From NCBI GenBank assembly GCA_043732705.1, contig JAYTHE010000002.1:56385-120384 (forward strand): a stretch of 64,000 nt of DNA, in the 5' to 3' direction. Under the pieces are notes generated by a model. It had not been told where the DNA came from and made no database searches. It worked only from the letters and a program-made list of their open reading frames with translations. This DNA comes from Candidatus Omnitrophota bacterium. GTDB lineage: Bacteria > Omnitrophota > Omnitrophia > Omnitrophales > Aquincolibacteriaceae. Positions 10,707-54,952 of this stretch are shown one piece after another (within the stretch, counting starts at the first letter, position 1; every line of letters begins with the position of its first letter). The position numbers and the translations under genes were made by a program.

Positions 10707-10775
10707 GTCTTATCAAAAATTGAGCCAATTTCATGAAAAATTTAAATTATTTTACAAACCATGTAAAATGCGCGT

Positions 10776-29376: not shown

Positions 29377-29853
29377 ATGAAACAGTTAAATTTAGCTCTA
29401 CGGCCTCGTCGCAATCGCGTAACGTGTTTGGTTTTTATGCTGCTCGCGGTTGTGACATTGTCTTTGCCGCTTTATGCTGATTGTGACTCATCTGAAAGAA
29501 ATGGAACGATGAGCGAAGAAAGGGAGAGTGAGAGAGGTATGATGGGCGGCGGGAAAATGGAAATGCACGGCATGATGATGAAAATGATGATGCAAAAATC
29601 AGTCGTGGCAACGTCAGACGGCGGCATTGTAATTGTTGCCGGGAATAAAATTACTAAATACGACAAACATCTCAAGCTTGTGAATGAAGTCGAAACCAAA
29701 ATGGATATAGAAGACATGGAAAAGAAAATGAAGGGAATGATGAAGATGTGTCCCCTGATGAAGGGTGGAATGAAAACCAGAGAGGAACGGCCTGAAGAAG
29801 CTGTGTCAGGCGCTTCATCTGACGCAGACAGTGACCACTCGGCGCATCATTGA
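29377..29853 (+). CDS. Met-rich secreted protein, likely Cu(I)/Ag(I)-binding
   Basis: A signal peptide and runs such as [19 protein letters not shown] and [16 protein letters not shown]. Confidence 0.5.
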
Positions 29854-29863
29854 AGAGAGGTTT

Positions 29864-32038: not shown

Positions 32039-32117
32039 TTTTTGTCAAAATCTCAACCCTGATTTGTTTCCATTTGGTATGCGCAAATTTATTAAATCAA
32101 GAGTAAAATAAACGCTT

Positions 32118-33113
32118 ATGGCTAACCACAAACATTCTCACGCTAAAGGGCATTCTCATTCCCATGCTGTGATTGACCCGTCGATTGTGACGCATGAACG
32201 CGGGCTATGGGCCGTGAAATGGTCCTTCATTGTTTTAATGATTACAGCTGCTTTGCAGCTCATCGTCGTGATTCTTTCAAGTAGCGTTGCGCTGCTTGCA
32301 GATACCATTCATAACTTTGCGGACGCGGCGACAGCCATCCCGCTTGGTATTGCTTTTTTATTTGTCCGCTTGAAACCAAGCAAGCGTTTTAATTATGGTT
32401 ACGGACGCGTTGAAGATTTAGCCGGCGTTATTGTCATTTTACTAATTCTTTTCAGCGGAATTGTCGCCGCTTATCAATCTGTGAATCGATTTTTTCATCC
32501 GCAGGATATTCATCATTTGGGTATCGTTGCCTTAGCGTCGATTTTGAGTTTTATCGGAAATGAAGGTGTGGCAATTTTTAGAATCAAAGTCGGCAAAGAA
32601 ATTGGCAGTGCGGCTTTAATCGCGGATGGTTATCACGCGCGCATTGACGGGTGGTCAAGCCTGGCTGTGCTTGTCGGGGCGATCGGAATTTGGCTCGGCT
32701 TTCCGCTTGCAGACCCGCTCATGGGTTTATGTATTACCGCTTCAATTCTTTATATCACATGGATATCCAGCAAAGAAATTTTTACTCGATTGTTGGATGG
32801 TGTTGATCCGGATGTGATTCATGAAGTCGAACATTCTACCGGGCATGTGCAAGGCGTCCAGAAAATTGGAGAAATTAAAGCGCGCTGGTCGGGGCATAAA
32901 CTTTACGTTGAAATGGCGATTGCCGTAAAAAGCGATGCCTCCGTGAAAGAAGGGCATGACATAGCCAAGGAAGTGCGTCACCAAATCCTGCATCATCTTC
33001 CGCATGTCGAGCAAATTATGATTCATGTCGATCCGGAAAATGAATTCGGAAGCGCGCATTATAAAATCGGCCCGCATGCGCATGGCGATGGCCCGGTGCA
33101 TTCGCATGACTGA
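32118..33113 (+). CDS. Cation diffusion facilitator (CzcD-like) transporter
   Basis: His-rich N-terminus, six TM helices with HxxxD-type motifs and a C-terminal His-rich tail. Confidence 0.8.
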   Translation: MANHKHSHAKGHSHSHAVIDPSIVTHERGLWAVKWSFIVLMITAALQLIVVILSSSVALLADTIHNFADAATAIPLGIAFLFVRLKPSKRFNYGYGRVEDLAGVIVILLILFSGIVAAYQSVNRFFHPQDIHHLGIVALASILSFIGNEGVAIFRIKVGKEIGSAALIADGYHARIDGWSSLAVLVGAIGIWLGFPLADPLMGLCITASILYITWISSKEIFTRLLDGVDPDVIHEVEHSTGHVQGVQKIGEIKARWSGHKLYVEMAIAVKSDASVKEGHDIAKEVRHQILHHLPHVEQIMIHVDPENEFGSAHYKIGPHAHGDGPVHSHD

Positions 33114-40436: not shown

Positions 40437-41105
40437 TTGAAAAGAGCTTCTCGAATTTTATTCGGCGTATTTTTATTGAGCATCTTTGCTTTTGTGCCAT
40501 TAGGCGGGTGCGAAGAATTTAAAAAAGAACCGTCCGACTTTTACACATTAGATGTTTCCCACAAATATCAACCGCATTTTCAAAGTCCTCAAAAATATAC
40601 AGCGGAGGACATGCGATTTTTAGCACACGAAGTTTTAATCAAGATGAAGCAAATATTAGGGGTCGAATTTGACCGCGGAAATCCGGCTCATGTCCGTGAG
40701 CTTGCCGAATTTTTTAAATTACTTCCCAATGAGGAGCTGGATATTTATTCCACGCCTATGTCGGATTCTGACATTTTGTATTTTGTGGATTCCGAACAAT
40801 TTGGGACCAAAGAATTGTATCCTCAAAACGCGCAGCAGCTTGTCGTGCGGTTTTATTGGGAGGGGCTGGCCCGCATAGCTGCCGAACATTACAAATTAAG
40901 AGTGGTGGATAACAAATCCGCTGTGAAGCCGCGCATGTCGCGCGGTAAGGTAAGCGATATGGCAACTACAGCGATGTTCGAGAAGCGGCCCGGCATAAGT
41001 ATTGCGCAGGCTGCCAAAGAAAATAAGGAACGATATGATTTTGGCAGGCTCATTAAACATCTTCACGAGAAAGGATTGCCTCGCGCCAACAAACGAAGCA
41101 GTTAG
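40437..41105 (+). CDS. Hypothetical lipoprotein
   Basis: Lipobox PLGGC after a signal peptide. Confidence 0.45.
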   Translation: MKRASRILFGVFLLSIFAFVPLGGCEEFKKEPSDFYTLDVSHKYQPHFQSPQKYTAEDMRFLAHEVLIKMKQILGVEFDRGNPAHVRELAEFFKLLPNEELDIYSTPMSDSDILYFVDSEQFGTKELYPQNAQQLVVRFYWEGLARIAAEHYKLRVVDNKSAVKPRMSRGKVSDMATTAMFEKRPGISIAQAAKENKERYDFGRLIKHLHEKGLPRANKRSS

Positions 41106-41260: not shown

Positions 41261-44200
41261 TTGATTTTTGAAAAAGATCAGTTACGTTTCCTTAAAGTTG
41301 TTTCATCTAAGAAAAAGGAATCGATCGTGCTATCCCAAAATCATTTTTTTTATTCTGCGCGTTTGCGCCGTGTTATAGCTTTTTTTCTTGTGATAGTGTT
41401 TCTTTTTTCTGACTACGCTTTTCTTCCTGCGAGCTTTGCACAAACCCTGCGTGCAACGGGTGCTGGCAATTTGTCCGCTTCGAATTTCGTTCCAATGAAA
41501 CTGGCTTTTTCTGAATCGTGGGGAAAGGTTGACGAAACGTTTAAGGGAGCTTCACAGAAAACATTAATTTTGATTCAGGACGCGCATGATTCGCTTGAAG
41601 CTCAGGAAAATATTGCGCATCTTGTTGATTATTTTGTCCGCGAGAAAAAAGTTCATACCGTTTACGAAGAAGGGCTAGAAGGCAAAGTTCCCACCGACGA
41701 TTATTTCGGTTTTATCCGCAACTCGGATGTGAAGCGCGAAGTCGCTTATTATTTAATGGATCATTTGCGTGTCGGTGGTGCTGAGTATGCGCATATTAAT
41801 CGTCACCGGCCGTTTAATTTGGTCGGAATCGATAATCATAAACTGCATGAACAAAACTTGTTCTGGTTTCGACGTGTTTTTCAAAATAGCGATGTTATTC
41901 AAAACGACTTGCGATTGCTTAAAAAACGCCTTCAAAAAATCGCCGATAAAAAATTAAACAAAAAAATAAAGAGCTGGCTCAAAGGTTATGAGCGTTATCA
42001 TCGCGGCGAAATGGCTTTTTATGATTTTCTGCGCCCCAGTGTCGATGCGCTCGGCAAGCAGCCTTTTCCGTCCAAACAGTTTCCTCAAATTCAAATCCTG
42101 CGGGAACCTTCCGATTTAGCGCAAATCAAAACACCGGAACTTTTTAAAGAAGTCGAAAGCTTTGATTCCTGGATGCTCGAAGCTTTGGGCCATAATGCTG
42201 ATGAAAAAGAACTTTTACGGCTTTTTCGACAAGTTATGCTTTTCGAAAAACTCAGCACTTTTAAGCTGACGCCCCATGAATTTAAATGGGCGCAGGAAGT
42301 TCTCAGGTCATTCAACACGCAAGCCGCCGCCAAATTTATCCACCGTGCATCTAATCAATCCGTTGTGCTTTCGACGGTTTGGGAATCTTATTTGCGCGAC
42401 GCATTACAGTTTTATGAAACGGCCTATGCGCGTGATGAGGCCGTCGAGCAAAATCTTGCGAACGGTTTTTTGAATGACAAAGAAAATGAAGCCGTGCTCG
42501 TCTTCGGCGGATTTCATAAAGATGCCATCAAAAATATTTTGCAGAGGCACGGGATTTCTTATGCTGTAATCAGTCCTAAGATCTCGGGAGTTTCGAAAAG
42601 GCATCAGGCCTATTATCAGGAAATTATGGCACATGGATATTTGAAATCAGAACTTCCGCAAGCCTTGGCGCGTGCGACGGTTCAAAACCATGTTTTTCAA
42701 ATTACTTCCCGCGAAGGTTTTCCCGCATATTTACGAAGAGTTCTGCCCCCACGTCTGTCTTCTTTGCTGCCTTTGACAATCGCACGTTCTGAACAACGCG
42801 ATAACGGTATCGAACGTGTGGACTACCCTGACTCCCATTTGCGCATTGCCATGGCGCAAATCAATACAACCGTCGGAGATTTTGAAGGCAATTATCGTAA
42901 AGCTTTAGCATCGTATGAAAAGGCGCGCACTCAAGATGTGGATGTGCTTGTTCTGCCCGAGCTAACTATTTCCGGTTATTTGCCGGAAGACTTGGTCAAT
43001 AAAGAACATTTTGTGCGCCAAAACAAAGAAACATTGCATTTGTTTGCGAAACAGATTCAAGACATGACGGTGGTGATCGGATTTATTGATTCCGATGATC
43101 AGGGTAATTTGTATAACGCCGCCGCGGTGATCTCAGACGGTGAAGTCAAACATGTTTATCATAAATGGGATTTGCCGAATTACGGCGTGTTTGACGAAAA
43201 ACGAAATTTTACCGGCAAAGAAACAACGATTTTCACTCCCGGACACACGCCATTTGTTTTTACGGTTAAAGGTTTGCCGGTGGGCCTTAATATTTGTGAA
43301 GACATATGGAATGACCGCGGTCGCGGACTCAATGTGTATGAAGAAGAAGCCAAGTTGGGCGCAAAATTACAAATCAATATTTCAGCGTCTCCTTTTCATG
43401 AACAAAAACTGGATCAAGTCCGCTTAGATTTGTTGCGAAAAAGAGCCGCGCAAACAGGTTCCATTATTCTTTATGCGAATTTGGTGGGGGGACAAGATGA
43501 GGTTGTTTTCGACGGTGGCAGCATGATTATGACTCCGCAAGGAGAGTTGACTGCGCGTGGAGCCCAGTTTCAAGAAGACCTCGTTATTACGGACGTTGAT
43601 TTAAGCCGTTCGAATAATCAGCCTCATGCGGATGCGCTTTTCCCCGCAATGAGCCCGTCGCAAAACAGCAGCCGTAAGGTTCCGCTCGAAAAACGTGAAT
43701 TAACACCGCCGCTTTCGGCAATTGCGGAAGATTACGAAGCGATGGTTCTCGCGACGCGTGATTATTTAAGAAAAAGTGGTTTCAAAACAGTGGTTTTGGG
43801 TTTGAGTGGCGGAATTGATTCGGCGGTTGTCGCTGCCATTGCACGTGATGCGATTGGTGCTGAAAATGTGAAAGGCATTTCGATGCCGACACAATTTAAT
43901 AGTGAAGGCACGAAAAGCGATGCGCGCATAACCGCCGAAAAGCTTGGGATTAAATTTGAAGAGAATCCGATTCAGAACTTGTTTAGCCTGTTTCTAAGCA
44001 CGGTCGAAGGTAACGCCAAGACAGGCTTTGTGGCGACATTTTATGCCTTTTTACGCTGGTTTTCTATGATGCCCAAATTTGGACATTGGTTTCAACGTTT
44101 TTCCCTCGTCGGTTTTTCAGCGTTCGGAATTTCAGAAGAAAATATGCAAGCTCGCATTCGGGGCATGATGTTAATGCGTGAATCCAACAAAAATGGCTCG

Positions 44201-47200
44201 TTGCTTTTGACCACCGGCAATAAAAGTGAAACGGCAGTGGGTTATGCAACTTTATATGGAGATATGGCAGGCGGATTTGCACCGATTAAAGATGCCTATA
44301 AAACTAGAGTATTTGATTTTGCACGGTATGTGAATCAGCGCGATGCTAGAGAAGTGATCCCTGTGAGCACAATTGACAGACCGCCTTCCGCGGAATTAAA
44401 CAAAGACCAAAAAGATGAAGATGCGCTGCCGCCTTATGTGACGGAGCTTGATCCGATGCTCAAGCTTTATCTTGAAAAAAATGCCCCGGCTGAAGATTTG
44501 GCAGTTGTTGCCGGAATGAAACAGGCTTTAACAGAGAAGGGCATTTATTCGGAGGAGAAACATCGGCTTTTTGCGGACGAAGTTTTCACAACGGGCAATT
44601 TGATCCAGGCGCTTGCGAAACTTCGGGCGCAGCTTGGCAACCCCAATGACGAGCCCTTTTCCAGTCTTAAGGAAAGAGCCGCAGAATTAGGCTCCAAAAA
44701 AGCGCATGATGTGATTCGCCGCGTTGATTTAAATGAATATAAACGTCGGCAGGGACCTCCGGGAGTTAAATTAACACCGACCGCCTTTGGTAAAGACCGG
44801 CGCATGCCCATCGTGAATACTTATCGTCAAAGAGGGGTTGAAGATTTTTTACGCCGTGATGGCGCACCCCGAGCTGTAACAGTTAAAAAAGAAGACGCCG
44901 CGCTGATTGTCGGAAAATTCGCGCCTTTTCATAACGGCCATGAATCTTTGATTAGGCAGGCATTAAATGAAAATGAAAAAGTAGTTGTTTTGGTTTATGA
45001 CCATCCCGAATTAATTAATATTTCCGCCACTGAAATGGCTGAAATGATTACAAAAATTATTAACAACGAGCGTTTGACGGTCATTCCTGTTTATGGCGCC
45101 CCTCCGGCCGGAGATTCCCGGGAAGCACGTCAAGCGCATCTTGATTTCATGAAACGGCAATTGCCGCCCAATATTCATGTTACCAAGGTTTATAACAATG
45201 AATGGTATGGCAAAGATATTGCGAATGGATTAAATGCGGAAATTATTCAACCCGATCCTAAAAGAACGCAGATTGGTATTTCTGCAAAAAAAATCCGTCA
45301 AGATCCCACTTCGCTTGCGGAAGCCCATGTGCATCCGGATATGTGGGAGCGATTGCAAAAATCAGGAACTAAAATGTGGGCGGTTCCGGATCAGGAAAGG
45401 CTTTACCGTGAAGGCATGGATGCAAGTTTTGTTGATCGGTCCATGGACGAAGCTGAGAAGGTAAGAATCCGCGCAAGTATTGAGGCTAAAAATCCAGGCT
45501 ATGCAGATAAGGCTAAGCTTTTCGCACCCGTCAAATGGGATCCGGCAACGTACGAAAGTGAAAACCTTCCTTCAGTTGTTGGCAATCTGAGAGATCACGC
45601 CACATTCAGCCAGCAACGCGGTGTGCGTATTTTGGATTTATTAATCCGCGATCCTAAAAAAGGCTGGGCCATTCCGAAAGTTCTTGAGCCTTTCCGCGAA
45701 GCGATTCAAATGGCGGTGGAACATGAACGCGCGATCAACCCTGATTTTGATGAATTGCATGTTTACGTGACGATTGACCAAAAGAAAGTCGAGCCGGATA
45801 AATTTCAACGCCGTCCCGGCGGGCATGCCGATGCTTTTCCGACGAAAGAAACCAACAACATTTCATCGGAGCTTGTTTTGGATGACACCTACATCATGTC
45901 GGACCGGCCTGAAATTTCGACATGGCTCATGCCCGGACCTTTTCCGGTCAAGGATGTTGATTTGAATGATGATGAAGCCGTTTTGAAGCGTTTTGATGAG
46001 GTCGGACAAAAGCAAATCGCAGCCGGCAAAGCAAAGCAAATGCCCGCGTTTCAAATGATTCGCATGACGCCCTATGACATTCATGCGGTTGCGCAAAATA
46101 AGACAGGCCATCCGATTGAACGTACCTTTATCAAGGTGCAATTCAGCCGCGACCGTTTGAACATGATGGGCAATACCTTGAACCGCGTTGAAGATAAAAA
46201 GGGCACGCCTGTTTTTGATTATTCGGATTGGACATGGATTCCCCGCAAACAGGGGGTGCGTAATAACCGTAACAGTATTCTTGGTTGGAATCGCGCGGAT
46301 GCGGATCAATTTCTTGAAGTGGATCCTTCCAAAATTGATTTTAATCAGGGTAAAGTGGCTTTTGATTGGGCTGAGCCTGAAGTTTTATTTATTAAAAAAA
46401 TTGAGGGCGTGCATGCCGAGCCCGCGATTGAGGGCGAAGTTTTAGAGACAAAGGTCAATGGGGATATCGTCACTTTCAATATCGCGCAAAAAGGCGACCG
46501 AAAAATTACCACGAGCCAGGGCGATCAATATTTTTTAAGCGATGAAAAATTTAGAGACCGTTACTTTGCGGATGAAGGCAAAGACGGTTTTTATCAGCCG
46601 CAAGCGCAGGTTGCGCGAGCTATTCGTATTATAAAACCGATTCGTATTCGCTCTTCTTGGGGTGCCTGGCAATATTTGTCTGTGGGCAGTGTTCTCGTTA
46701 GTACACACGCCGATCATGCTTACGGCATTCATAAAGATAATTATGAAGCGTCTTATCGCCGCACCGATGCTGAAGGCAATTTTCTGAGTGAACAATTATT
46801 GAATCCTGATCAGGTTGTTTCAGCAGATGTTTCGCCGGCTCTTAAAGGACAAATCGAGAGTCTTAATCCTGCTCATTCAACAGATAATCTTTTTGGTGTG
46901 GCCAAATGGGATGTCGCCGGATTCAATGAACCGCATTTACCGGTAGTCATCAGCGACACACTTTCAAATCGTGACAATGTCAGCTATTTTGAAGGTGACA
47001 CAGGTATACGCTACTTGGACCTTTTAATTTATGCCCCCGGCCAGGGGTGGGCCATTCCAAAAAATTTGGAACCGTTTATAGAACCGATTCGTTTAGCTTA
47101 TGAAGCAGAACGTTTAGCGAACCCTGCTTTTAAAGAACGGTTCATTCATATTACCGTTGATCAAAAAACAGTGCCAATAGACAAGCCCGGGCGCAGACCA

Positions 47201-50200
47201 GGATTGCATGCGGATGCCGGTTTGAAAGATGCGAATGGCCGTTCAATCGATGTGCTGGCTGAAAATCGCAGAGAGATTGAAGCGATGCGCGGCAAGTCGT
47301 CGGATCATGCGTATGTTTTTTATGATAAATTACCGACGGAATTTTATCCCGGGCCTTTTCATTTGGAACAAGCCGCTGACGGCGCCACTTTTGAATCTTT
47401 GGTTCCTCCCGGACAAACGCCCGTTACTTATCCGAAATTTACTTTGCTGCGGCTGAATGCTTTTGATGTACACACATCCACAATCAATCAAACCGGTGAG
47501 TCACAAAAACGGACATTTTTTAAACTTCAATTTACCGAACGCCTTTTGGACCGCCCAAATAATTCAATCAATTCCTTTTTGAATTATGACCGTGCCCGCG
47601 CGGTTTCAGTACAGCGCTCCGAACAGCGTTCAAACATGAGCCGTGAGGATGCGCTCGCGAATATTGCGAGATTGAATGCTGCGCGTCCAAAGGGTTACCC
47701 GGAAAGAAGCTTGAATCTTACCAAGCCTTATACTGCGCCGATTGTTTATAAAAATGCGCGTTCGAAGAAAAATCCTTATGGTTGGGCGCATCCTGATTTA
47801 AGCGACTCAAAAATTTCCGCGGCTGATAGACACCGTGCAATTGAAACATTGCGTGCCCATATTATGCGTTTTGATGAGCAGTTTGATCTAAGAACCGATT
47901 TTGATCCGGAAACGGGTTTGCCGGTTAACGATGCTGAAACCGGCTTGAACGGCAGAGGATCACTTGGGCGACATGGACCCAATCCGGCTGAAGATGCGAT
48001 TTTTTTGCGTTATAACAAAGCGGGTGAGTTGGAGGTTTTGGTGATTGAAAGAAATGACGGCGGCGGCCGGGCTTTGCCGGGCGGCATGATCAAGGAAGGG
48101 GAAGAAAATTTAGTCGGTGTGACATCAACTCGAGAATTAGAAGAAGAAACTAAGCTTCAAATTGATATGACGAAAGGTGTGGTTGTTTTTCGCGGGAAAG
48201 CGAATGAATGGCGCGATACCAATGATGCATGGATGGTGACACGAGGTGTGGCAGTTTTGCTTTCATGGGAAGAGTCCCAGCATTTAAAACCGCACGCAGG
48301 AAGTGACGCCAAGAAAAAGACTGCGCGCTTTGTTAAAGTTACCGACAATATGGGGCTTTACGCGCATCATCAAATTAATGTGAATAATGCCGTTGCGATG
48401 GTGAGAAATGGACAGCTTCAAACTTCAGATGAGGCTATCAACAAAAATATACCGGCTGTAGATATCACCATTACAGACATTGAAGAGGCCTATGAATTAT
48501 TCAAGGCGGGCAAAGGAAAAGTGTCAGAAAGTTACGATTTAATTGTGCCCGAAACTCCGCATGGCGGGGGCTATGCCGTTTTCGCGGGGCTTGAAGAAAC
48601 ACTTTCTTCAATTCGCCGCCGTCGATTTACACCTGATCACATCGCGGCTTTGCGCAAAATGGAAACTTTTTCAGAAGACTTTTTAAAATTTTTACAGCAA
48701 TTTACATTTGAAGGCGATTTGGATGCTTTGCCGGAAGGATCGGTTGTTTCACCGAAAATTCCTTTAATGCGTATTCAAGCCACGCCCGTGGAAATGGCGC
48801 TTTTAAAAGGTTTGATTCAAAACCGAATTGGTTTTAGTACGAATATTGCGACAAAGACTGCCCGAATTACTCAAGCGGCTAATGGTGATTTCGTGACTCC
48901 CGAGGCAATGGAACGTTTGCGCAAGAAAGACGGACTCGCTCCCGAGCAAGTCAAAAAAATACGCCCCGTTTCGGATTTTGGTCAGCGTCGAGGGCAGGGT
49001 AAAGGTTCGCTTGTCGCATCCCTCGCGGCAATTATTGGCGGAGCTATTTCGACTTCGTTTGTAAAAGCGGCAAAGCAGTTTTTCTTGAATGCAAGCGGAA
49101 CGATGGCGCATCTTTTTATCTCGTCTTTTCCGGCAAAATTAGAAATTATGGCTTTTCGTATTTGGGGAAAAATTTATCCGAAGACCTCTATTTTCCTGCT
49201 CGACACCTATGATTCAATTGAAGCGACAAAAAAAGCAATTATTGTCGCAAAAGAAATGGTCTTAAACGGAGGGCAGCTTTTTGGCGTTCGCTTAGATAGC
49301 GGCGATTTAGTGGTGCTATCGCGCACGATTCGAAAAATGCTGGATGATGCCGACCTTCACTATGTCAAAATTTTCGCGACGGATGATTTGGATGAATTTA
49401 AAATTACCGACATTTTATCAAAAGGCGCGCGCATTGACGGATTTGGCGTTGGCACGAATTTAATCACGGGCGGTAAACAAGCTACCTTAAAGTTGGAGTT
49501 TGTTCCATCTCATGGCGAGCGTTATTGGCGCGCGCGGCATCAAGGGCAATTTACGCGTTATGTGCGCACTGACAGAGACCGCGTGGCGCATGCGAGCTAT
49601 GGTGAAGAAATGACGGAGTTGCTCCGCCCCTTTTGGCGCAAGGGCCAACGTGTTCAAGATGCTAAAAAGCCCTGGAAAGCGCATGAGCGTGCAATTGATG
49701 AGCTTAGGCAATTTAAGCCCGAAAATAAAAAATTAGAAAACGCAGCCACGATTCCCGTTGAAGACCAAAAAAATCCTTTGACGATTAACCCCGAAACAGA
49801 TGCCATTATTTCGATTGACGCCACAAAAGCATTTATGAAAAAGGGTGGTTTGCCGGTGAAAGATGGCGACGATGTTGTTGCGCCCATCAAATTGCTCTTA
49901 CGGCGCTTTCCGAAAAATCGGCGTTTTGCGGCTGTAGACAAACATCCGCGTGGACATATATCTTGGGCAAGCTCTTTTGTCGGAACTCCACCCATGACTT
50001 ATTTAACTTATGAAGAGGTTGAAAAGTGGACGGATGCAAATCATAAAATTGGGCCGAATGCTAAATTTGACTTAGCGCAGCTTAAAGAAAAACTTAAAAG
50101 AATTGGCGGGCAAATGCTATGGCCCGATCACGCTGGAGAAAACACTCCGGAGTCGGAGCTGCATCCTGATTTTCTGGAAAGCGATTTTGAATATATTGAA

Positions 50201-53200
50201 GTTAAGGGTATGGATCCCGCGACAGATTCTTACAGTGCCTTTTTTGATAATGACGGCAACCCCACGAAATTGGCGCAAGAGCTTAGAAAGCGGGGAATTA
50301 AGCGAGTTTTTGTTATGGGCTTGGCCTATGATTATTGCGTGGGCTGGTCAGCCGAAGGCGCGCATAAATTAGGATTTGAAGTTGTTGTTGTAAAAGATGG
50401 TACGCGCCCGGTTGGTTTTCCTGCGGATAGTATTTCAAAAATGGATGCATCTTTTGCGGCAAAAGAAATTCCGGTTGTTTCGACTCAGGATGTTCTTGAT
50501 GCCAACGATTATCGTGGTGTCAACATGGCCAAGATGCTTGAAACCCCGATTGCGCACCCTGATTTTCCGGAAGAAGAAGATAGCTCCGCGCTTGAAGAAG
50601 ATATGTACCACATTACGATGGGCCAAACGCTGTTTCTTGAAAACTTACATAATCAGCCGGCGACTTTTGATTATTTTTATCGTGCTGCGCCTTATGGTCA
50701 GGATCACATCACGGTTTCAGGTTTGCGTTTCCTTCTTGAAGAATTAAAAAAATTCCGTTTTACTGAAGAGCAAATTCAATATCTAGCGAACATTCACAAG
50801 TTGAGCAGTGCTTCGGAGCTTGATCCAAAATATGTTGCTTACTTGCGAAATTATCGCTTCCAAGGTGATATTTCAGGCTTGCCTGAAGGCAGTGTGGCTT
50901 ATCCGAATGAACCGATTTTGACGGTCAAAGGCACGCTTTTTGACACCATGATCATTGAGACATTGATTCTGAAGACAATGAATTTTGGTGGGTTGATTTC
51001 AACTTGGGCAAGTTTGGAAAGACAACAAAAAGGAAATAATGCTCGTTTGATTGCGACCGGTCTTGAGGGCGCGCATGGAATTGCTCATAGCAGAGCAGCC
51101 TATGCGGCCTTTATTGCGGGCATCGACGCGACAGACGATTTTGATGCCGCAATGCGTTATGGAATTCCGTTAGCTGGCCCTCGCCAAAAGGGAACAAGAT
51201 TGGGCGCGGATCTTTTGACCGGTGGACCGAAATCTTCTATGGGCGGGGTTTATAAATTAGTTCATATAAATAAACGTGGTGTTGTTAAGTTGAGTGAGAA
51301 CGCGGCTAAAACATCGTTGCCCGGGAATAAAGTTATTGTTGAAGTTGTGGACAAAACCACGGGAAAAGTATTGCGTCGGTTGAAAAAGTTACAAAGTGAA
51401 AAGCTTGAGTTGGCCGCGAATGAAAAAATTAGAGTTCGATCCATTCCGCTTGTACACAAGGGCGAAGCCATTTATTCCGTACCAGATCCTTTTGAGGTTC
51501 GTGCTTATCGCGACGCGGATGCGGCGCGCCTCAAAGACATTAAAGCGTCGGAAGTTTCTCCGCGCATGGCGGCTTTCCAGAAAAAGCTCATTGATCGCAT
51601 TCATGGCCGATCTGAGCAGCGCAAGCCGCATCCGAATGTTCAGGAATCCGAATTATCAGAGGGCGAGGTAGATCAACTTTATGCTTTCTCAAAATCAATG
51701 ATGGAGCAAGCGCGAAGTATTTTGGATGAGTTTATTGTGCGGGGGTTTGGTCAATCAAAAAAAGATGATGGTAGTGTCTTGACCGATATTGACCCTGCAA
51801 TTCAACAGCGTGTTTTAGAAATGGTGCGTGAAAGATTCCCGGCGCATTATGTGCTCGCGGAAGAAAAATTGACTTCGGCTGAAGCGAGAGAGAATGACGC
51901 TTTAAAAAACTCCGATTATAAGTGGGTAGTTGATCCAATTGACGGGTCTCGAATTCTCGGAGAGGGTAATAATTATTACGCTATCTCGATCGCCCTGTAT
52001 TTCAAGGGAAAACCGGTGCTAGGATTAGTTTATTCGCCTTTCTTGGGCGGTTTTTTAGAAACTTCGCAGAATGAACCGCATGTCACCTTAAATCATATGC
52101 CGATTGTGCTTGATCCGAAGGCGGCTTTGCCTAAAACCCTCAAAACGATTATTCCGGGCACGACTCCCTACTCTGAGAATTTTAGAGAGGCCCTATTGGA
52201 TGATACTAGGCTGCGCCAAGCAGGCGTTCAAAAGATTGAAACACAAGTGGTGATCCGTTCCGCAGTGGTTAACCTGGCCAATATTTTACGTAGCCGTTAC
52301 GACTTATTTGCCAATATCGGCGAAAAGGAAATGAATATTTGGGATATTGCCGCGGCAGGCTATCTTCTGCAAAAAGCTGGGCGCAGCATGCTTGTTTCGC
52401 GTGGCGGTAAGTGGGAAAATGCTCTCGAAGTTTTTAGACATGATTTGACTTCGACGCAAACTATGAGTGGTTATCATTTTATAGCTGGATCCGACGCTGT
52501 TTTGGCCCATGTGCAAGCCATTTTGAGTCCGAGCGGTACACCCGTGAACAGTAGCCAATTACCCAGAGATGTCGAAACTGTTTCAAACCGAGTGATCTCG
52601 CACGATAAGCCCTTCGCGGCGGTATTCGATTTTCATGGAACCTTGGTAGAAACTACATGGAAAAATGAATTTGCGCTTGCGTATGACCAGGTGAAAAAAG
52701 TTGGTATGGCTGCCGCGCTTGCATGGGTTGAAAAAAACGCGCATCAAGATTTACGAGTTTTTATGCCCGCGCAGCTTGGAATGAAACAGTCTGAATTTTT
52801 AAAAATTTTGGCGGTAGCACAGGAAGAGTCTCGTGAAAACTATTTTCCGCGACTGCTTGACGGCGCGCGTGAAATGGTTCAGGCGCTTTTGGAAAGAAAT
52901 GTGCCTGTTTTTATTCTTACGGGGTCGCCGAGTGAGGTTGTTTTAAAACAGCTTGAGCAAGCGGGCCTGCTTGATTTAATTCCTAAAGAAAACATTATTA
53001 CTCGAGATCGCATTGAGCAATCCACCGGTAAGGTTCAAGGATCGCTCAAAGATGCGGCGATTTCAAGTCTTCAAACGCAGCTTCCTAATCACCGCTTTTT
53101 ACATTTTAGCGATTCACCGGGTGGATTCGAATCAATTCACCAAATCGAGGGTTTTAATTTTGGGCGCGTGGATGGCGAAGGCCAGGAAAGGGTCGCTAAG

Positions 53201-54952
53201 CGGGAAAGGATGGTTGGAAGTCAGGCTGATTTCTTGTTGAACGCTGGGTTTAAGCATTGGCGAGAGCTAATTGATTTTCTGAAAATTAAAACAGCGTTGC
53301 AATACCAAGCTCCCGTGCTTGCGACGACCAGTGATGAGGCCGTTGAAGTCCCGTTTATTTTGCCGGCAAAGCGGAATGGTGGATTGGCCCTCCACATTTT
53401 TGTCAGTGACGATCTGAAGGAGGTTACTTATTCGGAAGTGCTTGACGATTCTCAAGTTTATGGCAAAGAGGGTGCTGTAGATTATACGAAACTTAAACTT
53501 AAAAAAATCGCTACGTTTCCAAGCTCTTACCTTATTTCTCCATCCAAACAAATTGCGGTACTTTCGCCGCCGGAAGTTTTAGACGCGATCGGGCGTGTTT
53601 GGCCCCAACATAAACGCTATACGACTTATCGTGGCGTCACGACATCGTGGGATCAAGAGGAAGACATTAATGTTTGGTCATTCAACATTGATAGCGGTTA
53701 CCTGCTTAAGGTTTTGCATGAAGCCGGGTTGCTCAACGAGACTGTCAAAAAAGCCGCTGAAGTGGGCGTGGGCGGCGGACAGGTTTCCGCCGATATTGTC
53801 GCAGCGCTGCCTCATTTGGAGGAAATGACGTTCTCCGATATTAGTTTGTATGCTTTGCGCGCCGCAAAGGCAAACATTTTGCCGTGGATTAAGAAGAAAC
53901 TCATACGGCTTAGGACTTTTCTTGGAAAAGGTATTAAAGCCTTTCCGAAAGATTTAGATTTGTTGATTGTCAATCCGCCTTATATTCCCACATCGCCATT
54001 TGAAAAAAGACCCACGAACGATCCTTATCGAGGTACCGGGTTGATTCATGAAGTGATTCAAGACGGTTTTAGGCATTTAAATCCTGCGAATCCTAAGGCA
54101 GCGGTTGTGATGAATGTAAGCTCTTTGGCCGCACAGGATTTTGAGCGTTATCAGCAAGAGTTTTCAGCGCAAGTTGAAATTTCGCCGATTGGGGAGCCTT
54201 TACTTGTGCCGCTTAAAATTCGTACGATTTCAGAAGAGTGGAAGCGGTGGTTGGTTGAAAATGGAATGCTTGAAAGACGCCCCACGACCAAGCTAGGCGA
54301 AGAGGAATATTGGCACCGGATTCAAGCCTATGTCATTCGCCCCAAGGCGAATGTGCGTTCGGAACAACGTTTAGCAGATAGTCAGCCTGTAACTATTTTT
54401 CAATCCAAGCCTGTTCGTGCTTCTGCAGTTGAAGGGGTTTTTGTAGCTCCTATTACAGTGCTTGTTGATGCGCGTGACTTTGCCGCTTTTAATTCGGAAC
54501 AGAAGCAAGAGTTTTTTAAGTTGTTCGAAAAATATCAAGGGCAACAGCATTTGAAATTTATCTTTGAAAATATAGCAGCTTTAAACGAACAAGATCCTGT
54601 CGCTGCTGAATTACGGGATTTTGCAGGGCAATATCCACGTTTGATTGAAACGCGCAATCAATCCCTAGATAGGTTGGCACTTCCGAAAACAGCGGTGATT
54701 ATGGTTTCAAAAGAGGGGCTGGATAACGCGGCTCGGGAAAGTATGATCCGAAGCAGTGTGCCCCAGCACTTGATCGTTTCATATAAAAGACAAAATATCT
54801 CCGCAGGGTTAATTACAGCGGCACTTTTATTGTTTCAATCGGAACGGTATCAAGCTTATCAAAACCGGTCACTTTCAGAAGTTCCGAGTGATTTACAAGC
54901 TCAAGTATTTGAGATTTTGGAAAGCTTTGTTTATATTGGGCGTTCGGCTTAA
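41261..54952 (+). CDS. Giant 4563 aa multidomain protein fusing the NAD biosynthesis, salvage and turnover enzymes, with an N-terminal TM anchor
   Basis: A single uninterrupted 13,692 nt ORF. Recognisable domains are listed as separate 'other' features below. Confidence 0.85.
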   Translation: MIFEKDQLRFLKVVSSKKKESIVLSQNHFFYSARLRRVIAFFLVIVFLFSDYAFLPASFAQTLRATGAGNLSASNFVPMKLAFSESWGKVDETFKGASQKTLILIQDAHDSLEAQENIAHLVDYFVREKKVHTVYEEGLEGKVPTDDYFGFIRNSDVKREVAYYLMDHLRVGGAEYAHINRHRPFNLVGIDNHKLHEQNLFWFRRVFQNSDVIQNDLRLLKKRLQKIADKKLNKKIKSWLKGYERYHRGEMAFYDFLRPSVDALGKQPFPSKQFPQIQILREPSDLAQIKTPELFKEVESFDSWMLEALGHNADEKELLRLFRQVMLFEKLSTFKLTPHEFKWAQEVLRSFNTQAAAKFIHRASNQSVVLSTVWESYLRDALQFYETAYARDEAVEQNLANGFLNDKENEAVLVFGGFHKDAIKNILQRHGISYAVISPKISGVSKRHQAYYQEIMAHGYLKSELPQALARATVQNHVFQITSREGFPAYLRRVLPPRLSSLLPLTIARSEQRDNGIERVDYPDSHLRIAMAQINTTVGDFEGNYRKALASYEKARTQDVDVLVLPELTISGYLPEDLVNKEHFVRQNKETLHLFAKQIQDMTVVIGFIDSDDQGNLYNAAAVISDGEVKHVYHKWDLPNYGVFDEKRNFTGKETTIFTPGHTPFVFTVKGLPVGLNICEDIWNDRGRGLNVYEEEAKLGAKLQINISASPFHEQKLDQVRLDLLRKRAAQTGSIILYANLVGGQDEVVFDGGSMIMTPQGELTARGAQFQEDLVITDVDLSRSNNQPHADALFPAMSPSQNSSRKVPLEKRELTPPLSAIAEDYEAMVLATRDYLRKSGFKTVVLGLSGGIDSAVVAAIARDAIGAENVKGISMPTQFNSEGTKSDARITAEKLGIKFEENPIQNLFSLFLSTVEGNAKTGFVATFYAFLRWFSMMPKFGHWFQRFSLVGFSAFGISEENMQARIRGMMLMRESNKNGSLLLTTGNKSETAVGYATLYGDMAGGFAPIKDAYKTRVFDFARYVNQRDAREVIPVSTIDRPPSAELNKDQKDEDALPPYVTELDPMLKLYLEKNAPAEDLAVVAGMKQALTEKGIYSEEKHRLFADEVFTTGNLIQALAKLRAQLGNPNDEPFSSLKERAAELGSKKAHDVIRRVDLNEYKRRQGPPGVKLTPTAFGKDRRMPIVNTYRQRGVEDFLRRDGAPRAVTVKKEDAALIVGKFAPFHNGHESLIRQALNENEKVVVLVYDHPELINISATEMAEMITKIINNERLTVIPVYGAPPAGDSREARQAHLDFMKRQLPPNIHVTKVYNNEWYGKDIANGLNAEIIQPDPKRTQIGISAKKIRQDPTSLAEAHVHPDMWERLQKSGTKMWAVPDQERLYREGMDASFVDRSMDEAEKVRIRASIEAKNPGYADKAKLFAPVKWDPATYESENLPSVVGNLRDHATFSQQRGVRILDLLIRDPKKGWAIPKVLEPFREAIQMAVEHERAINPDFDELHVYVTIDQKKVEPDKFQRRPGGHADAFPTKETNNISSELVLDDTYIMSDRPEISTWLMPGPFPVKDVDLNDDEAVLKRFDEVGQKQIAAGKAKQMPAFQMIRMTPYDIHAVAQNKTGHPIERTFIKVQFSRDRLNMMGNTLNRVEDKKGTPVFDYSDWTWIPRKQGVRNNRNSILGWNRADADQFLEVDPSKIDFNQGKVAFDWAEPEVLFIKKIEGVHAEPAIEGEVLETKVNGDIVTFNIAQKGDRKITTSQGDQYFLSDEKFRDRYFADEGKDGFYQPQAQVARAIRIIKPIRIRSSWGAWQYLSVGSVLVSTHADHAYGIHKDNYEASYRRTDAEGNFLSEQLLNPDQVVSADVSPALKGQIESLNPAHSTDNLFGVAKWDVAGFNEPHLPVVISDTLSNRDNVSYFEGDTGIRYLDLLIYAPGQGWAIPKNLEPFIEPIRLAYEAERLANPAFKERFIHITVDQKTVPIDKPGRRPGLHADAGLKDANGRSIDVLAENRREIEAMRGKSSDHAYVFYDKLPTEFYPGPFHLEQAADGATFESLVPPGQTPVTYPKFTLLRLNAFDVHTSTINQTGESQKRTFFKLQFTERLLDRPNNSINSFLNYDRARAVSVQRSEQRSNMSREDALANIARLNAARPKGYPERSLNLTKPYTAPIVYKNARSKKNPYGWAHPDLSDSKISAADRHRAIETLRAHIMRFDEQFDLRTDFDPETGLPVNDAETGLNGRGSLGRHGPNPAEDAIFLRYNKAGELEVLVIERNDGGGRALPGGMIKEGEENLVGVTSTRELEEETKLQIDMTKGVVVFRGKANEWRDTNDAWMVTRGVAVLLSWEESQHLKPHAGSDAKKKTARFVKVTDNMGLYAHHQINVNNAVAMVRNGQLQTSDEAINKNIPAVDITITDIEEAYELFKAGKGKVSESYDLIVPETPHGGGYAVFAGLEETLSSIRRRRFTPDHIAALRKMETFSEDFLKFLQQFTFEGDLDALPEGSVVSPKIPLMRIQATPVEMALLKGLIQNRIGFSTNIATKTARITQAANGDFVTPEAMERLRKKDGLAPEQVKKIRPVSDFGQRRGQGKGSLVASLAAIIGGAISTSFVKAAKQFFLNASGTMAHLFISSFPAKLEIMAFRIWGKIYPKTSIFLLDTYDSIEATKKAIIVAKEMVLNGGQLFGVRLDSGDLVVLSRTIRKMLDDADLHYVKIFATDDLDEFKITDILSKGARIDGFGVGTNLITGGKQATLKLEFVPSHGERYWRARHQGQFTRYVRTDRDRVAHASYGEEMTELLRPFWRKGQRVQDAKKPWKAHERAIDELRQFKPENKKLENAATIPVEDQKNPLTINPETDAIISIDATKAFMKKGGLPVKDGDDVVAPIKLLLRRFPKNRRFAAVDKHPRGHISWASSFVGTPPMTYLTYEEVEKWTDANHKIGPNAKFDLAQLKEKLKRIGGQMLWPDHAGENTPESELHPDFLESDFEYIEVKGMDPATDSYSAFFDNDGNPTKLAQELRKRGIKRVFVMGLAYDYCVGWSAEGAHKLGFEVVVVKDGTRPVGFPADSISKMDASFAAKEIPVVSTQDVLDANDYRGVNMAKMLETPIAHPDFPEEEDSSALEEDMYHITMGQTLFLENLHNQPATFDYFYRAAPYGQDHITVSGLRFLLEELKKFRFTEEQIQYLANIHKLSSASELDPKYVAYLRNYRFQGDISGLPEGSVAYPNEPILTVKGTLFDTMIIETLILKTMNFGGLISTWASLERQQKGNNARLIATGLEGAHGIAHSRAAYAAFIAGIDATDDFDAAMRYGIPLAGPRQKGTRLGADLLTGGPKSSMGGVYKLVHINKRGVVKLSENAAKTSLPGNKVIVEVVDKTTGKVLRRLKKLQSEKLELAANEKIRVRSIPLVHKGEAIYSVPDPFEVRAYRDADAARLKDIKASEVSPRMAAFQKKLIDRIHGRSEQRKPHPNVQESELSEGEVDQLYAFSKSMMEQARSILDEFIVRGFGQSKKDDGSVLTDIDPAIQQRVLEMVRERFPAHYVLAEEKLTSAEARENDALKNSDYKWVVDPIDGSRILGEGNNYYAISIALYFKGKPVLGLVYSPFLGGFLETSQNEPHVTLNHMPIVLDPKAALPKTLKTIIPGTTPYSENFREALLDDTRLRQAGVQKIETQVVIRSAVVNLANILRSRYDLFANIGEKEMNIWDIAAAGYLLQKAGRSMLVSRGGKWENALEVFRHDLTSTQTMSGYHFIAGSDAVLAHVQAILSPSGTPVNSSQLPRDVETVSNRVISHDKPFAAVFDFHGTLVETTWKNEFALAYDQVKKVGMAAALAWVEKNAHQDLRVFMPAQLGMKQSEFLKILAVAQEESRENYFPRLLDGAREMVQALLERNVPVFILTGSPSEVVLKQLEQAGLLDLIPKENIITRDRIEQSTGKVQGSLKDAAISSLQTQLPNHRFLHFSDSPGGFESIHQIEGFNFGRVDGEGQERVAKRERMVGSQADFLLNAGFKHWRELIDFLKIKTALQYQAPVLATTSDEAVEVPFILPAKRNGGLALHIFVSDDLKEVTYSEVLDDSQVYGKEGAVDYTKLKLKKIATFPSSYLISPSKQIAVLSPPEVLDAIGRVWPQHKRYTTYRGVTTSWDQEEDINVWSFNIDSGYLLKVLHEAGLLNETVKKAAEVGVGGGQVSADIVAALPHLEEMTFSDISLYALRAAKANILPWIKKKLIRLRTFLGKGIKAFPKDLDLLIVNPPYIPTSPFEKRPTNDPYRGTGLIHEVIQDGFRHLNPANPKAAVVMNVSSLAAQDFERYQQEFSAQVEISPIGEPLLVPLKIRTISEEWKRWLVENGMLERRPTTKLGEEEYWHRIQAYVIRPKANVRSEQRLADSQPVTIFQSKPVRASAVEGVFVAPITVLVDARDFAAFNSEQKQEFFKLFEKYQGQQHLKFIFENIAALNEQDPVAAELRDFAGQYPRLIETRNQSLDRLALPKTAVIMVSKEGLDNAARESMIRSSVPQHLIVSYKRQNISAGLITAALLLFQSERYQAYQNRSLSEVPSDLQAQVFEILESFVYIGRSA
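41366..42800 (+). other. Giant-ORF N-terminus: a TM/signal-anchor helix (VIAFFLVIVFLFSDYAFLPASFA) followed by a roughly 450 aa unassigned domain
   Basis: Hydrophobic helix at aa 36-60. No confident family match. Confidence 0.4.
42830..44520 (+). other. Giant-ORF domain: glutamine-dependent NAD+ synthetase (NadE) as a CN-hydrolase/nitrilase domain plus an NAD-synthase PP-loop domain
   Basis: CN-hydrolase motifs LVLPELTISGY and the catalytic Cys context LNICEDIW. An NAD synthase SGGIDS PP-loop and TTGNKSETAVGYATLYGD follow. Confidence 0.8.
44880..45400 (+). other. Giant-ORF domain: NMN/NaMN adenylyltransferase (NadM/NadR-type nucleotidyltransferase)
   Basis: The (H/T)xGH motif appears as GKFAPFHNGHESL, together with the ISAKKIR-type second motif. 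Confidence 0.7.
45615..47560 (+). other. Giant-ORF: a duplicated unassigned domain of about 180 aa (copies at 45615-46165 and 47000-47560) separated by a beta-rich spacer
   Basis: Paralogous segments: G(V/I)R(I/Y)LDLLI..P..GWAIPK.LEPF and ..TVDQK.V..DK..RRPG.HADA. I recognise no family. Confidence 0.4.
47940..48340 (+). other. Giant-ORF domain: Nudix hydrolase, ADP-ribose pyrophosphatase-like
   Basis: GRHGPNPAEDAIF and the Nudix box ALPGGMIKEGEENLVGVTSTRELEEETKL. Confidence 0.7.
48500..49510 (+). other. Giant-ORF domain: type II phosphoribosyltransferase of the NAPRT/NAMPT superfamily, copy 1
   Basis: LLDTYDSIEA, GVRLDSGDL and GFGVGTNL motifs. Confidence 0.65.
49795..50500 (+). other. Giant-ORF domain: nicotinamidase / isochorismatase-like cysteine hydrolase (PncA)
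   Basis: IISIDATKAF carries the Asp, a Lys lies in the mid region, and VFVMGLAYDYCV carries the catalytic Cys. Confidence 0.7.
50590..51560 (+). other. Giant-ORF domain: nicotinate phosphoribosyltransferase-like (PncB-type), copy 2
   Basis: An N-terminal MYHITMGQ box of LTM type, a central PRTase barrel and a C-terminal VKLSENAAKTSLPGNKV tail typical of NAPRTases. Confidence 0.6.
51700..52520 (+). other. Giant-ORF domain: inositol-monophosphatase/CysQ-family phosphatase, a candidate NADP or PAP phosphatase
   Basis: DGSVLTDIDP, WVVDPIDGS and WDIAAAGYLL IMPase motifs. Confidence 0.65.
52600..53260 (+). other. Giant-ORF domain: HAD-superfamily phosphatase
   Basis: Motif I FDFHGTLVET (DxDGT type) and motif III ILTGSP. 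Confidence 0.6.
53560..54350 (+). other. Giant-ORF domain: SAM-dependent methyltransferase with an NPPY motif (HemK/N6-amino MTase class)
   Basis: A glycine-rich VGVGGGQVS SAM loop and LLIVNPPYIPT. Confidence 0.6.

Follow-up and report, generated by a model that had tools for sequence, protein, structure and literature searches.

Bacterial NAD biosynthesis and salvage are among the best-charted pathways, and we know of no 2-oxoglutarate (2OG) oxygenase that acts in them; our literature searches for such an enzyme in bacterial NAD biosynthesis or salvage found none. Pyridinium compounds such as NMN/NAD+, trigonelline, and 1-methylnicotinamide share a carbon on a cationic ring nitrogen with the substrates of AlkB, a 2OG oxygenase that hydroxylates such a carbon, upon which the free base is released. 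For the domains described here, this oxidative N-dealkylation is a mechanistic analogy only. By fold, the closest known enzymes are PhyH-like and related small-molecule Fe(II)/2OG dioxygenases (ColD, EvdO2/HygX/AviO1, TlxI, EasH, FtmOx1, SptF, AndA, AsqJ, and EctD), together with enzymes of the PKHD or prolyl 4-hydroxylase type (E. coli YbiX/PiuC, PHD2, and viral collagen prolyl hydroxylase). By pathway, they are NadM, a bifunctional enzyme in which NMNAT and Nudix (ADP-ribose pyrophosphatase) modules share one polypeptide and are adjacent in ordinary representatives (e.g. gene 22 of the Ralstonia jumbo phage RsoM2USA), and the phage pathways NARP1, NARP2, and NARP3, which as described contain no dioxygenase. 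Neither the NARP3 paper nor a survey of viral NAD systems mentions one.

A duplicated domain between the NMNAT and Nudix modules of a megaprotein

The window (the whole 64,000-nucleotide stretch of DNA that was analysed) contains a 4563-aa open reading frame (41261..54952) whose closest relatives are in Omnitrophota, and which encodes a megaprotein carrying two paralogous domains, X1 and X2. Like NadM, it has a NadR/NadM-type NMNAT (GKFAPFHNGH motif in the translation) and a Nudix module in one chain and in an NAD salvage setting, but the two are not adjacent. Pfam, run on the whole megaprotein, places them at aa 1216-1275 (CTP_transf_like) and aa 2248-2363 (NUDIX), in agreement with the original prediction that the domain pair lies between them. 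The gap of about 850 residues is occupied by X1, a PGDYG-like domain, X2, an RSEQR motif, and a stretch of about 120 aa without a domain match. RSEQR occurs four times in the megaprotein, against an expected count of 0.003, and the copy after X2 bounds a NadE-NMNAT-X1-PGDYG-X2 block. The features are as follows:

44846..45466, + strand: NadR/NadM-type NMNAT module (aa 1196-1402), with Pfam CTP_transf_like inside it; directly N-terminal to X1
45467..46288, + strand: X1, Fe(II)/2OG dioxygenase-like domain (aa 1403-1676); in family alignments A1 and A2
46289..46840, + strand: PGDYG-like spacer domain (aa 1677-1860)
46478-46759, + strand: PGDYG-like C-terminal half of the spacer (aa 1740-1833), similar to PF14083
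46841..47611, + strand: X2, second Fe(II)/2OG dioxygenase-like domain (aa 1861-2117)
47615..47629, + strand: RSEQR punctuation motif just past X2, from a motif search of the megaprotein
48002..48349, + strand: Nudix module (Pfam NUDIX, E=3e-6)
LDLLI: aa 1458 (X1) and aa 1919 (X2)
GWAIPK: aa 1468 (X1) and aa 1929 (X2)
LEPF: aa 1475 (X1) and aa 1936 (X2)
DQK: aa 1506 (X1) and aa 1967 (X2)
RRPG: aa 1517 (X1) and aa 1978 (X2)
HADA: aa 1522 (X1) and aa 1983 (X2)
Motif residues of X1: R1517, H1522, D1524, H1608, R1621
Motif residues of X2: R1978, H1983, D1985, H2071, R2084

When the two segments were compared by BLASTP, we found 35% identity over 257 aligned positions (E=1e-44), far beyond chance, which bears out the earlier claim that they are paralogous. 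Each copy is about 260-275 aa long instead of the 180 aa first suggested, and the range originally assigned to the pair (45615-47560) truncates X1 at its N-terminus and X2 at its C-terminus. The shared motifs all lie where they had been reported, except that copy 1 reads TIDQK and not TVDQK. X1 is 47-59% identical to the X1 of other organisms and only 35% identical to its own X2, and the duplication is therefore old. Moreover, the X1 and X2 sequences fall into two distinct clades, and the same proteins contribute orthologs to both; the X1 of the megaprotein belongs to the X1(+PGDYG) clade, and wherever context is available, X2 co-occurs with X1-PGDYG. We rejected a recent tandem duplication or an artefact of assembly as the origin of the two copies, given the low identity between them and the closer orthologs that each has elsewhere.

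A word-indexed protein search found only 2-5 relatives of X, whereas an exhaustive profile search revealed a family of 768 representative clusters, many of them free-standing proteins of 235-290 aa. The statement that the segments could not be placed in a family holds for the sequence libraries: Pfam assigned nothing to X in the megaprotein, searches with 47 family members hit no 2OG-oxygenase model in Pfam (E<=1) or in NCBIfam (E<=0.01), and PDB sequences gave no match at E<=10 with the family profile and none with a single sequence. The only matches are to PHROG 1843 ('unknown function'), for all 47 members, and to PHROG 8970, for 41 of them. The public copies are all named 'hypothetical protein', and the family is not described in the literature that we searched on PGDYG, on dioxygenases linked to NAMPT/NadV/NrtR, in a jumbo-phage survey, or in two Omnitrophota papers.

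The spacer between the copies is itself a conserved domain of 160-180 aa, found after X in 38-40 of 152 representative proteins. A low-complexity linker was considered and rejected, as about 40 proteins share the spacer at 30-63% identity. Pfam PF14083 (PGDYG), a family of bacterial and phage proteins, is matched by 18 of 25 spacer homologs (best E=6.6e-7); the window spacer itself scores 20.7 bits (E=5.6e-4), below the gathering cut-off of 27 bits, and equivalent weak matches occur in L005 and P0010. About 95 C-terminal residues of the spacer align to nearly the whole 102-position model, whereas the additional N-terminal half of about 65 aa and the constant fusion after an X domain set the spacer apart from PGDYG. 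Judged from these alignments, the spacer domain appears to be distantly related to PGDYG, a name for which a full-text search returned no papers.

Fold and predicted active site

Structure prediction and fold search, which the original prediction had proposed as a check, were run on X2, the only copy modelled. An alignment of four sequences gave an AlphaFold pLDDT of 52 for the X domain and was discarded; with an alignment of 47 sequences, the X2 model was confident. It has the double-stranded beta-helix (jelly-roll) core expected of the Fe(II)/2OG superfamily, and in the fold search it matched only this fold of Fe(II)/2OG dioxygenases, with small-molecule oxygenases as the best structural matches. 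In a search of BFVD, uncharacterised viral homologs (those of Orpheovirus and jumbo phages included) ranked ahead of annotated 2OG oxygenases. No ART, TIR, SIR2, or CD38-type folds were among the listed matches, nor was X2 predicted to adopt a non-catalytic fold, the outcome that had been named as refuting the NAD-consuming role.

Alignment for invariant residues, also proposed earlier, yielded an iron triad and a downstream Arg. Specifically, R118, H123, D125, H211, and R224 are invariant in the 47 sequences of the family alignment. In a set of 135 full-length domains, drawn from representatives that share less than 50% identity, each of the three triad residues is kept in 133, R224 in all 135, and R118 in 131, with Lys in the other four. 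Read from the sequence, both window copies carry the putative 2-His-1-carboxylate triad HxD...H. In this superfamily, the 2OG-binding basic residue lies 10-15 residues past the distal His on the next strand; R224 is 13 residues past H211, which is on the predicted strand 210-213, and is itself on the predicted strand 222-232. We infer that R224 binds the C5-carboxylate of 2-oxoglutarate. Profile alignments with E. coli YbiX and YbiU (hhalign) did not reach significance, but they place GxHxD of the X family over the HxD motifs of these two proteins. Taken together, it is highly likely that X1 and X2 have the dioxygenase fold and an intact active site.

Genomic context of the X family

Four independent links connect the X family with NAD genes: fusion to NMNAT, membership in a nadABC operon, adjacency to NrtR, and adjacency to phage NAMPT. 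The same NMNAT module that precedes X1 in the megaprotein stands directly before X in L001, L003, L004, and L005 (tblastn and BLASTP), and 11 representatives, a divergent clade among them, have NMNAT fused immediately N-terminal to X. NMNAT-X1-PGDYG(-X2) is a conserved unit, and the order NMNAT-X1-PGDYG-X2 is kept in two Omnitrophota MAGs. In L001, this unit is divided over two genes beside NadE and the NAPRTase-like and PRPP-synthetase-like genes; the latter two are a likeness to the phage NARP pathways. In the alphaproteobacterial locus L005, an 877-aa chain has NMNAT-X1-PGDYG followed by a Nudix-like C-terminus, and its gene adjoins NAPRTase and NadE. In both L005 and the megaprotein, X1-PGDYG separates the NMNAT from the Nudix, unlike in NadM, and the megaprotein adds X2.

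Stand-alone members show similar links. In L006, a nadA-nadB-nadC operon that has NrtR upstream is closed by an X gene overlapping the end of nadC; in L022, X lies 80 bp downstream of an NrtR-like gene. In phage RsoM2USA, X adjoins NAMPT and is 6 kb from NMNAT-Nudix, which are NARP2 components; in L009, NAMPT is 7.6 kb from X. Many other homologs have no detectable NAD gene nearby, including those in the early regions of T7-like and T4-like phages and in the jumbo-phage loci L007, L010, and L012. Overall, in agreement with the earlier view, the domains look catalytic and are tied to NAD metabolism by their fusion, operon, and regulator contexts.

Alternative explanations

The original prediction proposed that the pair is a classical NAD consumer (with NAD glycohydrolase, ADP-ribosyl cyclase, or ADP-ribosyltransferase-like activity), which would be the source of the nicotinamide and ADP-ribose. 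All that speaks for this is pathway logic, as the other modules make NAD or recycle these two products. The structural comparison does not support it: the confident X2 model matches 2OG-oxygenase folds exclusively, and the family conserves a metal triad and an Arg in place of the H-Y-E/R-S-E motifs of ARTs or the TIR, SIR2, and CD38 set. This proposal is now extremely improbable, and in the explanation that we favour, X1 and X2 are not glycohydrolases or ADP-ribosyltransferases. The domains might instead have kept an oxygenase-like fold without catalysis, as scaffolds or ligand sensors that space or regulate NMNAT and Nudix. Ordinary NadM has NMNAT and Nudix side by side, and the insertion of X1 and X2 between these modules would fit such a role; duplication could serve architecture. 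The triad and Arg, however, are nearly invariant across the 135 diverse domains and present in both copies, and many homologs are free-standing, which makes a purely structural role quite improbable.

Two further readings accept an active oxygenase and differ in its substrate. Hydroxylation of a macromolecule, either a protein (prolyl, lysyl, or asparaginyl residues, possibly in another module of the megaprotein) or RNA/DNA as by AlkB and TET, could couple NAD synthesis to the supply of O2 and 2-oxoglutarate, or serve the repair or modification of nucleic acids. Against this, the X2 model best matches oxygenases of small molecules, the partners conserved in fusions and operons are likewise enzymes that act on small molecules, and no peptide- or nucleic-acid-binding module was detected; nothing about X points to a peptide substrate, and its sequence alignment with the PKHD/prolyl 4-hydroxylase type is not significant (P=0.03). 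We consider a macromolecular substrate unlikely. Slightly less unlikely is a general activity of the family on nucleotides or on intermediates of the PRPP pathway, with the NAD-linked members as one specialisation and phosphoribosyltransferase chemistry (NadC, PncB, NAMPT, and PyrE) or nucleoside monophosphates as the common denominator. X stands beside NadC, NAPRTase, and NAMPT, and a distant member is clustered with pyrC, pyrD, pyrF, and pyrE (L013); other members are fused to Pol-beta nucleotidyltransferase, HD, or histidine-phosphatase (His_Phos_1) domains, and phage copies lie among early and nucleotide-metabolism genes, such as that for the dCTPase gp56. Because of the pyrimidine context, these fusions, and the loci without NAD genes, the family may act on nucleotides more broadly. 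However, X is fused directly to NMNAT in at least two divergent clades, the NAD-specific regulator NrtR flanks two unrelated stand-alone members, and the pyrimidine context is a single case.

Proposed function

On balance, we lean towards the explanation that X1 and X2 are intact Fe(II)/2OG dioxygenases acting in pyridine-nucleotide metabolism, and, jointly with this role, that the X family constitutes a group of non-haem Fe(II)/2-oxoglutarate-dependent dioxygenases that had no name before. We propose that the X1-PGDYG-X2 block is inserted into a NadM-like NMNAT...Nudix enzyme within a megaprotein with further modules that make or recycle NAD. Each X domain would coordinate Fe(II) with H/D/H and bind 2-oxoglutarate with the Arg. 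With O2, it would then hydroxylate a C-H bond in some phosphorylated small molecule that belongs to pyridine-nucleotide metabolism, and dealkylation or desaturation could follow. As candidate binders of a phosphate or carboxylate, we name the invariant Arg that precedes HxD by five residues and the basic residues near it. The substrate could be NMN/NaMN, NAD/NaAD, ADP-ribose, or a derivative that has been modified or damaged, and the reactions that we envisage are demethylation of trigonelline or N-methylnicotinamide, C1' hydroxylation of NMN/NAD, desaturation of a dihydro-NAD isomer, and oxidation of ADP-ribose. Oxidative consumption of NAD/NMN by hydroxylation of the carbon on the pyridinium nitrogen is chemically conceivable and would be a purely speculative variant. 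As a best guess, an NAD-related compound that salvage enzymes cannot use would be made usable or removed, with X1-PGDYG and X2 acting as a working pair or on consecutive steps. It is important to point out that many Omnitrophota have been described as lacking aerobic oxidases (preprint), and an O2-requiring reaction therefore counts against this explanation.

More tentatively, an O2/2OG-dependent step in pyridine-nucleotide metabolism may extend from NrtR- and nadABC-linked bacterial genes to the NAD-salvage loci of jumbo phages, with Omnitrophota-type megaproteins combining a NadM-like enzyme with the X1-PGDYG/X2 pair. The stand-alone members are small and easily expressed, which makes the question directly testable. 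If the link to NAD genes is functional, the X family would represent an enzymatic or quality-control step for pyridine nucleotides that is absent from current maps, and it could bear on the contest between phages and bacteria over NAD.

Domain organization of the megaprotein

The megaprotein is encoded by an ORF of 4563 codons (window 41261..54952, + strand), and the same protein is present in a public assembly, where it starts at codon 23 (GTG at 41327) and not at the TTG at 41261. Its Pfam-assigned modules are listed here with the two copies of the duplicated domain (X1 and X2, members of a family that we call X) and a recurrent pentapeptide.

Features of the megaprotein (+ strand; aa, residues of the ORF; nt, window positions)
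aa 509-513, nt 42785-42799: RSEQR
aa 528-783: CN_hydrolase (Pfam)
aa 826-1092: NAD_synthase (Pfam)
aa 1216-1275: NadR/NadM-type cytidylyltransferase-like NMNAT (Pfam)
aa 1403-1676, nt 45467-46288: X1
aa 1861-2117, nt 46841-47611: X2
aa 2119-2123, nt 47615-47629: RSEQR
aa 2248-2363: NUDIX (Pfam)
aa 2570-2833: NAPRTase (Pfam)
aa 2848-3048: isochorismatase / nicotinamidase (Pfam)
aa 3111-3241: second NAPRTase_N (Pfam)
aa 3450-3454, nt 51608-51622: RSEQR
aa 3473-3716: inositol-monophosphatase-like (Pfam)
aa 3786-3956: HAD (Pfam)
aa 4366-4370, nt 54356-54370: RSEQR

Between aa 1276 and 2247, Pfam was blank apart from a sub-threshold PGDYG match at aa 1740-1832. The two segments of this region that the original prediction had described as repeats are indeed paralogous (BLASTP E=1e-44, with 35% identity across 257 aligned positions), and every motif reported in them was found at its position. 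The length of about 180 aa assigned to the copies was too short, as they extend over aa 1403-1676 and aa 1861-2117. An antisense ORF within X1 (45863-46309, minus strand, 148 aa) is unsupported and most likely spurious.

The four RSEQR sites (expected count, 0.003) each separate functional blocks. P0020, a homolog of 6010 aa, contains RSELR 12 times, and two of these sites exactly flank its NMNAT-X1-PGDYG unit; on metagenome contig L001 this unit is encoded by a gene of its own. The pentapeptide was not found in two other proteins from the family search, P0006 and P0013. This pattern suggests that RSE[QL]R may be a protease cleavage site for polyprotein processing or a conserved hinge.

The N-terminal ~500 aa (41261-42790, aa 1-510) have no Pfam match and include a hydrophobic stretch near aa 36-60, RRVIAFFLVIVFLFSDYAFLPASFAQ, that resembles a membrane anchor or signal peptide; this region shares 37% identity with the P0020 N-terminus and has weaker matches in an Omnitrophota locus (L003, 15019-16275). 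The C-terminal blocks (51611-54952, aa 3451-4563) comprise the inositol-monophosphatase-like module, which could be an NADP phosphatase, the HAD module, a domain whose NPPY motif (LLIVNPPYIP) is characteristic of HemK/N6-type methyltransferases, and a ~200-aa tail without family assignment after the last RSEQR. Two ORFs without Pfam match lie immediately 5' on the same strand (37899-40409, 836 aa; 40437-41105, 222 aa) and also adjoin the megaprotein on a Logan contig. Elsewhere the window has the gene content of an ordinary bacterial chromosome (transporters, AcrB/CusA-type efflux, a P-type ATPase, LacI and PntAB); a metal-efflux cluster upstream (24874-33113) encodes an HlyD-type adaptor and a P-type ATPase, each with a heavy-metal-binding domain, together with an AcrB/CusA-type pump and a CDF transporter.

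X1 and X2 have the predicted fold and motif of Fe(II)/2-oxoglutarate dioxygenases

An AlphaFold model of X2 made with four sequences was poor (pLDDT 52), and the model from a 47-sequence alignment reached a pLDDT of 92.5 and a pTM of 0.90. The only invariant columns in this alignment were R118, H123, D125, H211 and R224 (X2 numbering). Among 135 full-length X domains (representatives below 50% identity), H123, D125 and H211 were each kept in 133, R224 in all 135, and R118 in 131, with Lys in the other 4. Both megaprotein copies keep all five residues (R1517, H1522, D1524, H1608 and R1621 in X1; R1978, H1983, D1985, H2071 and R2084 in X2). Judged by sequence pattern, the invariant residues are a predicted HxD...H iron triad and an Arg 13 residues past the distal His, the place at which 2-oxoglutarate (2OG) oxygenases have a 2-oxoglutarate-binding residue. 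H211 and R224 are predicted to lie on consecutive strands. Comparison with E. coli YbiX and YbiU by hhalign was not significant, and it placed the GxHxD and distal His of X on their motifs. Basic residues beside the predicted metal site are also kept across the family (R118, often R119; K, R or G at position 109).

The superfamily is well known, and the X family itself is unnamed. The original prediction could not place the repeats in a family, and we likewise obtained no match in Pfam, NCBIfam or PDB sequences: none of the 47 aligned members matched the 2OG-oxygenase models of Pfam and NCBIfam, and the family profile found no PDB sequence. A word-indexed protein search returned only two relatives; a profile search run exhaustively against 1.84 billion cluster representatives yielded 768 of them at E<=1e-3, of which 115 reached E<=1e-30. 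Many homologs are free-standing proteins of 235-290 aa. PHROG 1843 ("unknown function") was matched by 47 of 47 aligned members and PHROG 8970 by 41 of 47, and public names, where present, are "hypothetical protein", save one odd automatic label. Homologs occur in Omnitrophota and proteobacterial MAGs, on viral contigs (among them jumbo phages of 296 and 457 kb), and in Ralstonia phages RsoM2USA and RPSC1, Salicola phage SCTP-2, Acinetobacter phage 133 and others, as well as, by structure (BFVD), in Orpheovirus and Catovirus. The best viral structural match, A0A2I2L347 of Orpheovirus IHUMI-LCC2, a giant virus of amoebae, has 470 aa (28% identity, TM 0.75), a length compatible with X plus a PGDYG-like domain. 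No NAD salvage is reported for eukaryotic viruses in a published survey of viral NAD systems; neither this survey nor the jumbo-phage survey or the NARP papers mention the X family or its association with NAD genes.

X1 carries a PGDYG-like domain and is orthologous across megaproteins

The segment between the copies (aa 1677-1860), originally described as a beta-rich spacer, is not a linker, as a homologous ~160-aa segment follows X in 38-40 of 152 representative proteins (30-63% identity). Of 25 such segments, 18 matched Pfam PGDYG (PF14083), a family without known function and with no solved structure detectable by sequence. The best E value was 6.6e-7, and the segment of the window scored 20.7 bits against a cut-off of 27 bits. 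X1 is therefore a two-domain "X + PGDYG-like" unit and X2 an X domain alone.

When the megaprotein modules were used as tblastn probes, the order NMNAT-X1-PGDYG-X2 was also found in megaproteins of Omnitrophota MAGs (L003, L004), and on contig L001 it is present as two genes, NMNAT-X1-PGDYG (P0010, 650 aa) and X2 (P0001, 437 aa). The window X1 is 47-59% identical to the X1 of these three loci and only 35% identical to its own X2, and in a neighbour-joining tree X1(+PGDYG) and X2 formed separate clades, with orthologs from the same proteins in both. X2 was accompanied by X1-PGDYG in every case with context; X1-PGDYG occurred without X2 in L005, P0013 and P0020. The L005 protein (877 aa) is a single NMNAT-X1-PGDYG chain with a Nudix-like C-terminus, that is, a NadM with an insertion.

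Genomic context of the X family

In 11 representatives X directly follows a fused NMNAT; among them is a divergent clade in which this NMNAT shares only 28-37% identity with that of the window. The clusters of L001 and L005 are syntenic and include NAPRTase, NadE, PRPP synthetase and a PncA-like protein. The cleanest operon evidence comes from Proteobacteria bacterium UBA6503 (L006, DJLZ01000003.1, 3379-10717), in which NrtR, two ankyrin-repeat proteins, NadA, NadB and NadC precede a stand-alone X of 265 aa (9920-10717); this X is last in the nadA-nadB-nadC operon, shares 56 nt with the end of nadC and is followed by a SpoU methylase and TldD/PmbA. On a JGI 3300065536 contig (L022, 6046-10319), 80 bp separate an NrtR-like gene (Nudix + NrtR winged helix) from a distant X downstream. 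A 502-aa protein without Pfam match follows this X, and a divergently transcribed 361-aa gene with a faint nucleoside 2-deoxyribosyltransferase-like match lies upstream. Gene 12 of Ralstonia jumbo phage RsoM2USA, which encodes X, adjoins NAMPT (gene 14), with an NMNAT-Nudix gene 6 kb away, and on viral contig L009 X lies 7.6 kb from NAMPT. Genes 17-22 of RsoM2USA (L011, 851-5398) place NMNAT-Nudix beside a tellurite-resistance-like set (TelA, vWA-TerF-like, TerC/DUF475, TerD), a few kb upstream of NAMPT and the X homolog. These contexts outside the megaprotein group are independent and point the same way, toward NAD metabolism.

This link does not hold for every family member. Several of the phage copies lie in early regions without a recognisable NAD gene, and in GCA_964443475.1 (L013, 8001-12807) a distant X (24% identical) follows a MarR gene and lies beside pyrC, pyrD, pyrF and pyrE (dihydroorotase, DHO dehydrogenase, OMP decarboxylase and phosphoribosyltransferase), a pyrimidine and not an NAD context. 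One clade (P0079, P0081, P0101) is fused to a Pol-beta-type nucleotidyltransferase, accompanied in some members by an HD phosphohydrolase, a PGAM-like histidine phosphatase or both, which hints that the wider family may act on nucleotides.

Predicted activity

The NAD glycohydrolase, cyclase or ADP-ribosyltransferase activity originally envisaged for X1 and X2 is very unlikely in light of the modelled fold and motif, which also speak against a passive scaffold role. The most economical reading is that X1 and X2 would be paired, active Fe(II)/2OG dioxygenases whose substrate would be a small phosphorylated compound of pyridine-nucleotide metabolism. The fusion partners of X act on NMN/NaMN, NAD and ADP-ribose, its operon partners produce NaMN, and NrtR, the regulator adjoining X, is an ADP-ribose sensor. 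That the family acts on nucleotides more broadly and not on NAD alone, as the Pol-beta-type fusions and the pyrimidine locus might indicate, seems unlikely to us, and we consider it slightly less probable still that the X domains are macromolecule hydroxylases.

For the dioxygenase pair, oxidative dealkylation at the carbon on the pyridinium nitrogen would be chemically plausible for the fold. Attack at ribose C1' of NMN or NAD could release nicotinamide, and attack on the N-methyl group of trigonelline or 1-methylnicotinamide could yield nicotinate or nicotinamide; ribose hydroxylation or desaturation of mis-reduced dihydronicotinamide would be plausible as well. A point of caution is the O2 requirement of the predicted reaction, as the nearest relatives of the ORF are Omnitrophota, which according to a recent preprint are largely without aerobic terminal oxidases. 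Small stand-alone family members exist, which makes the question of X activity directly testable.
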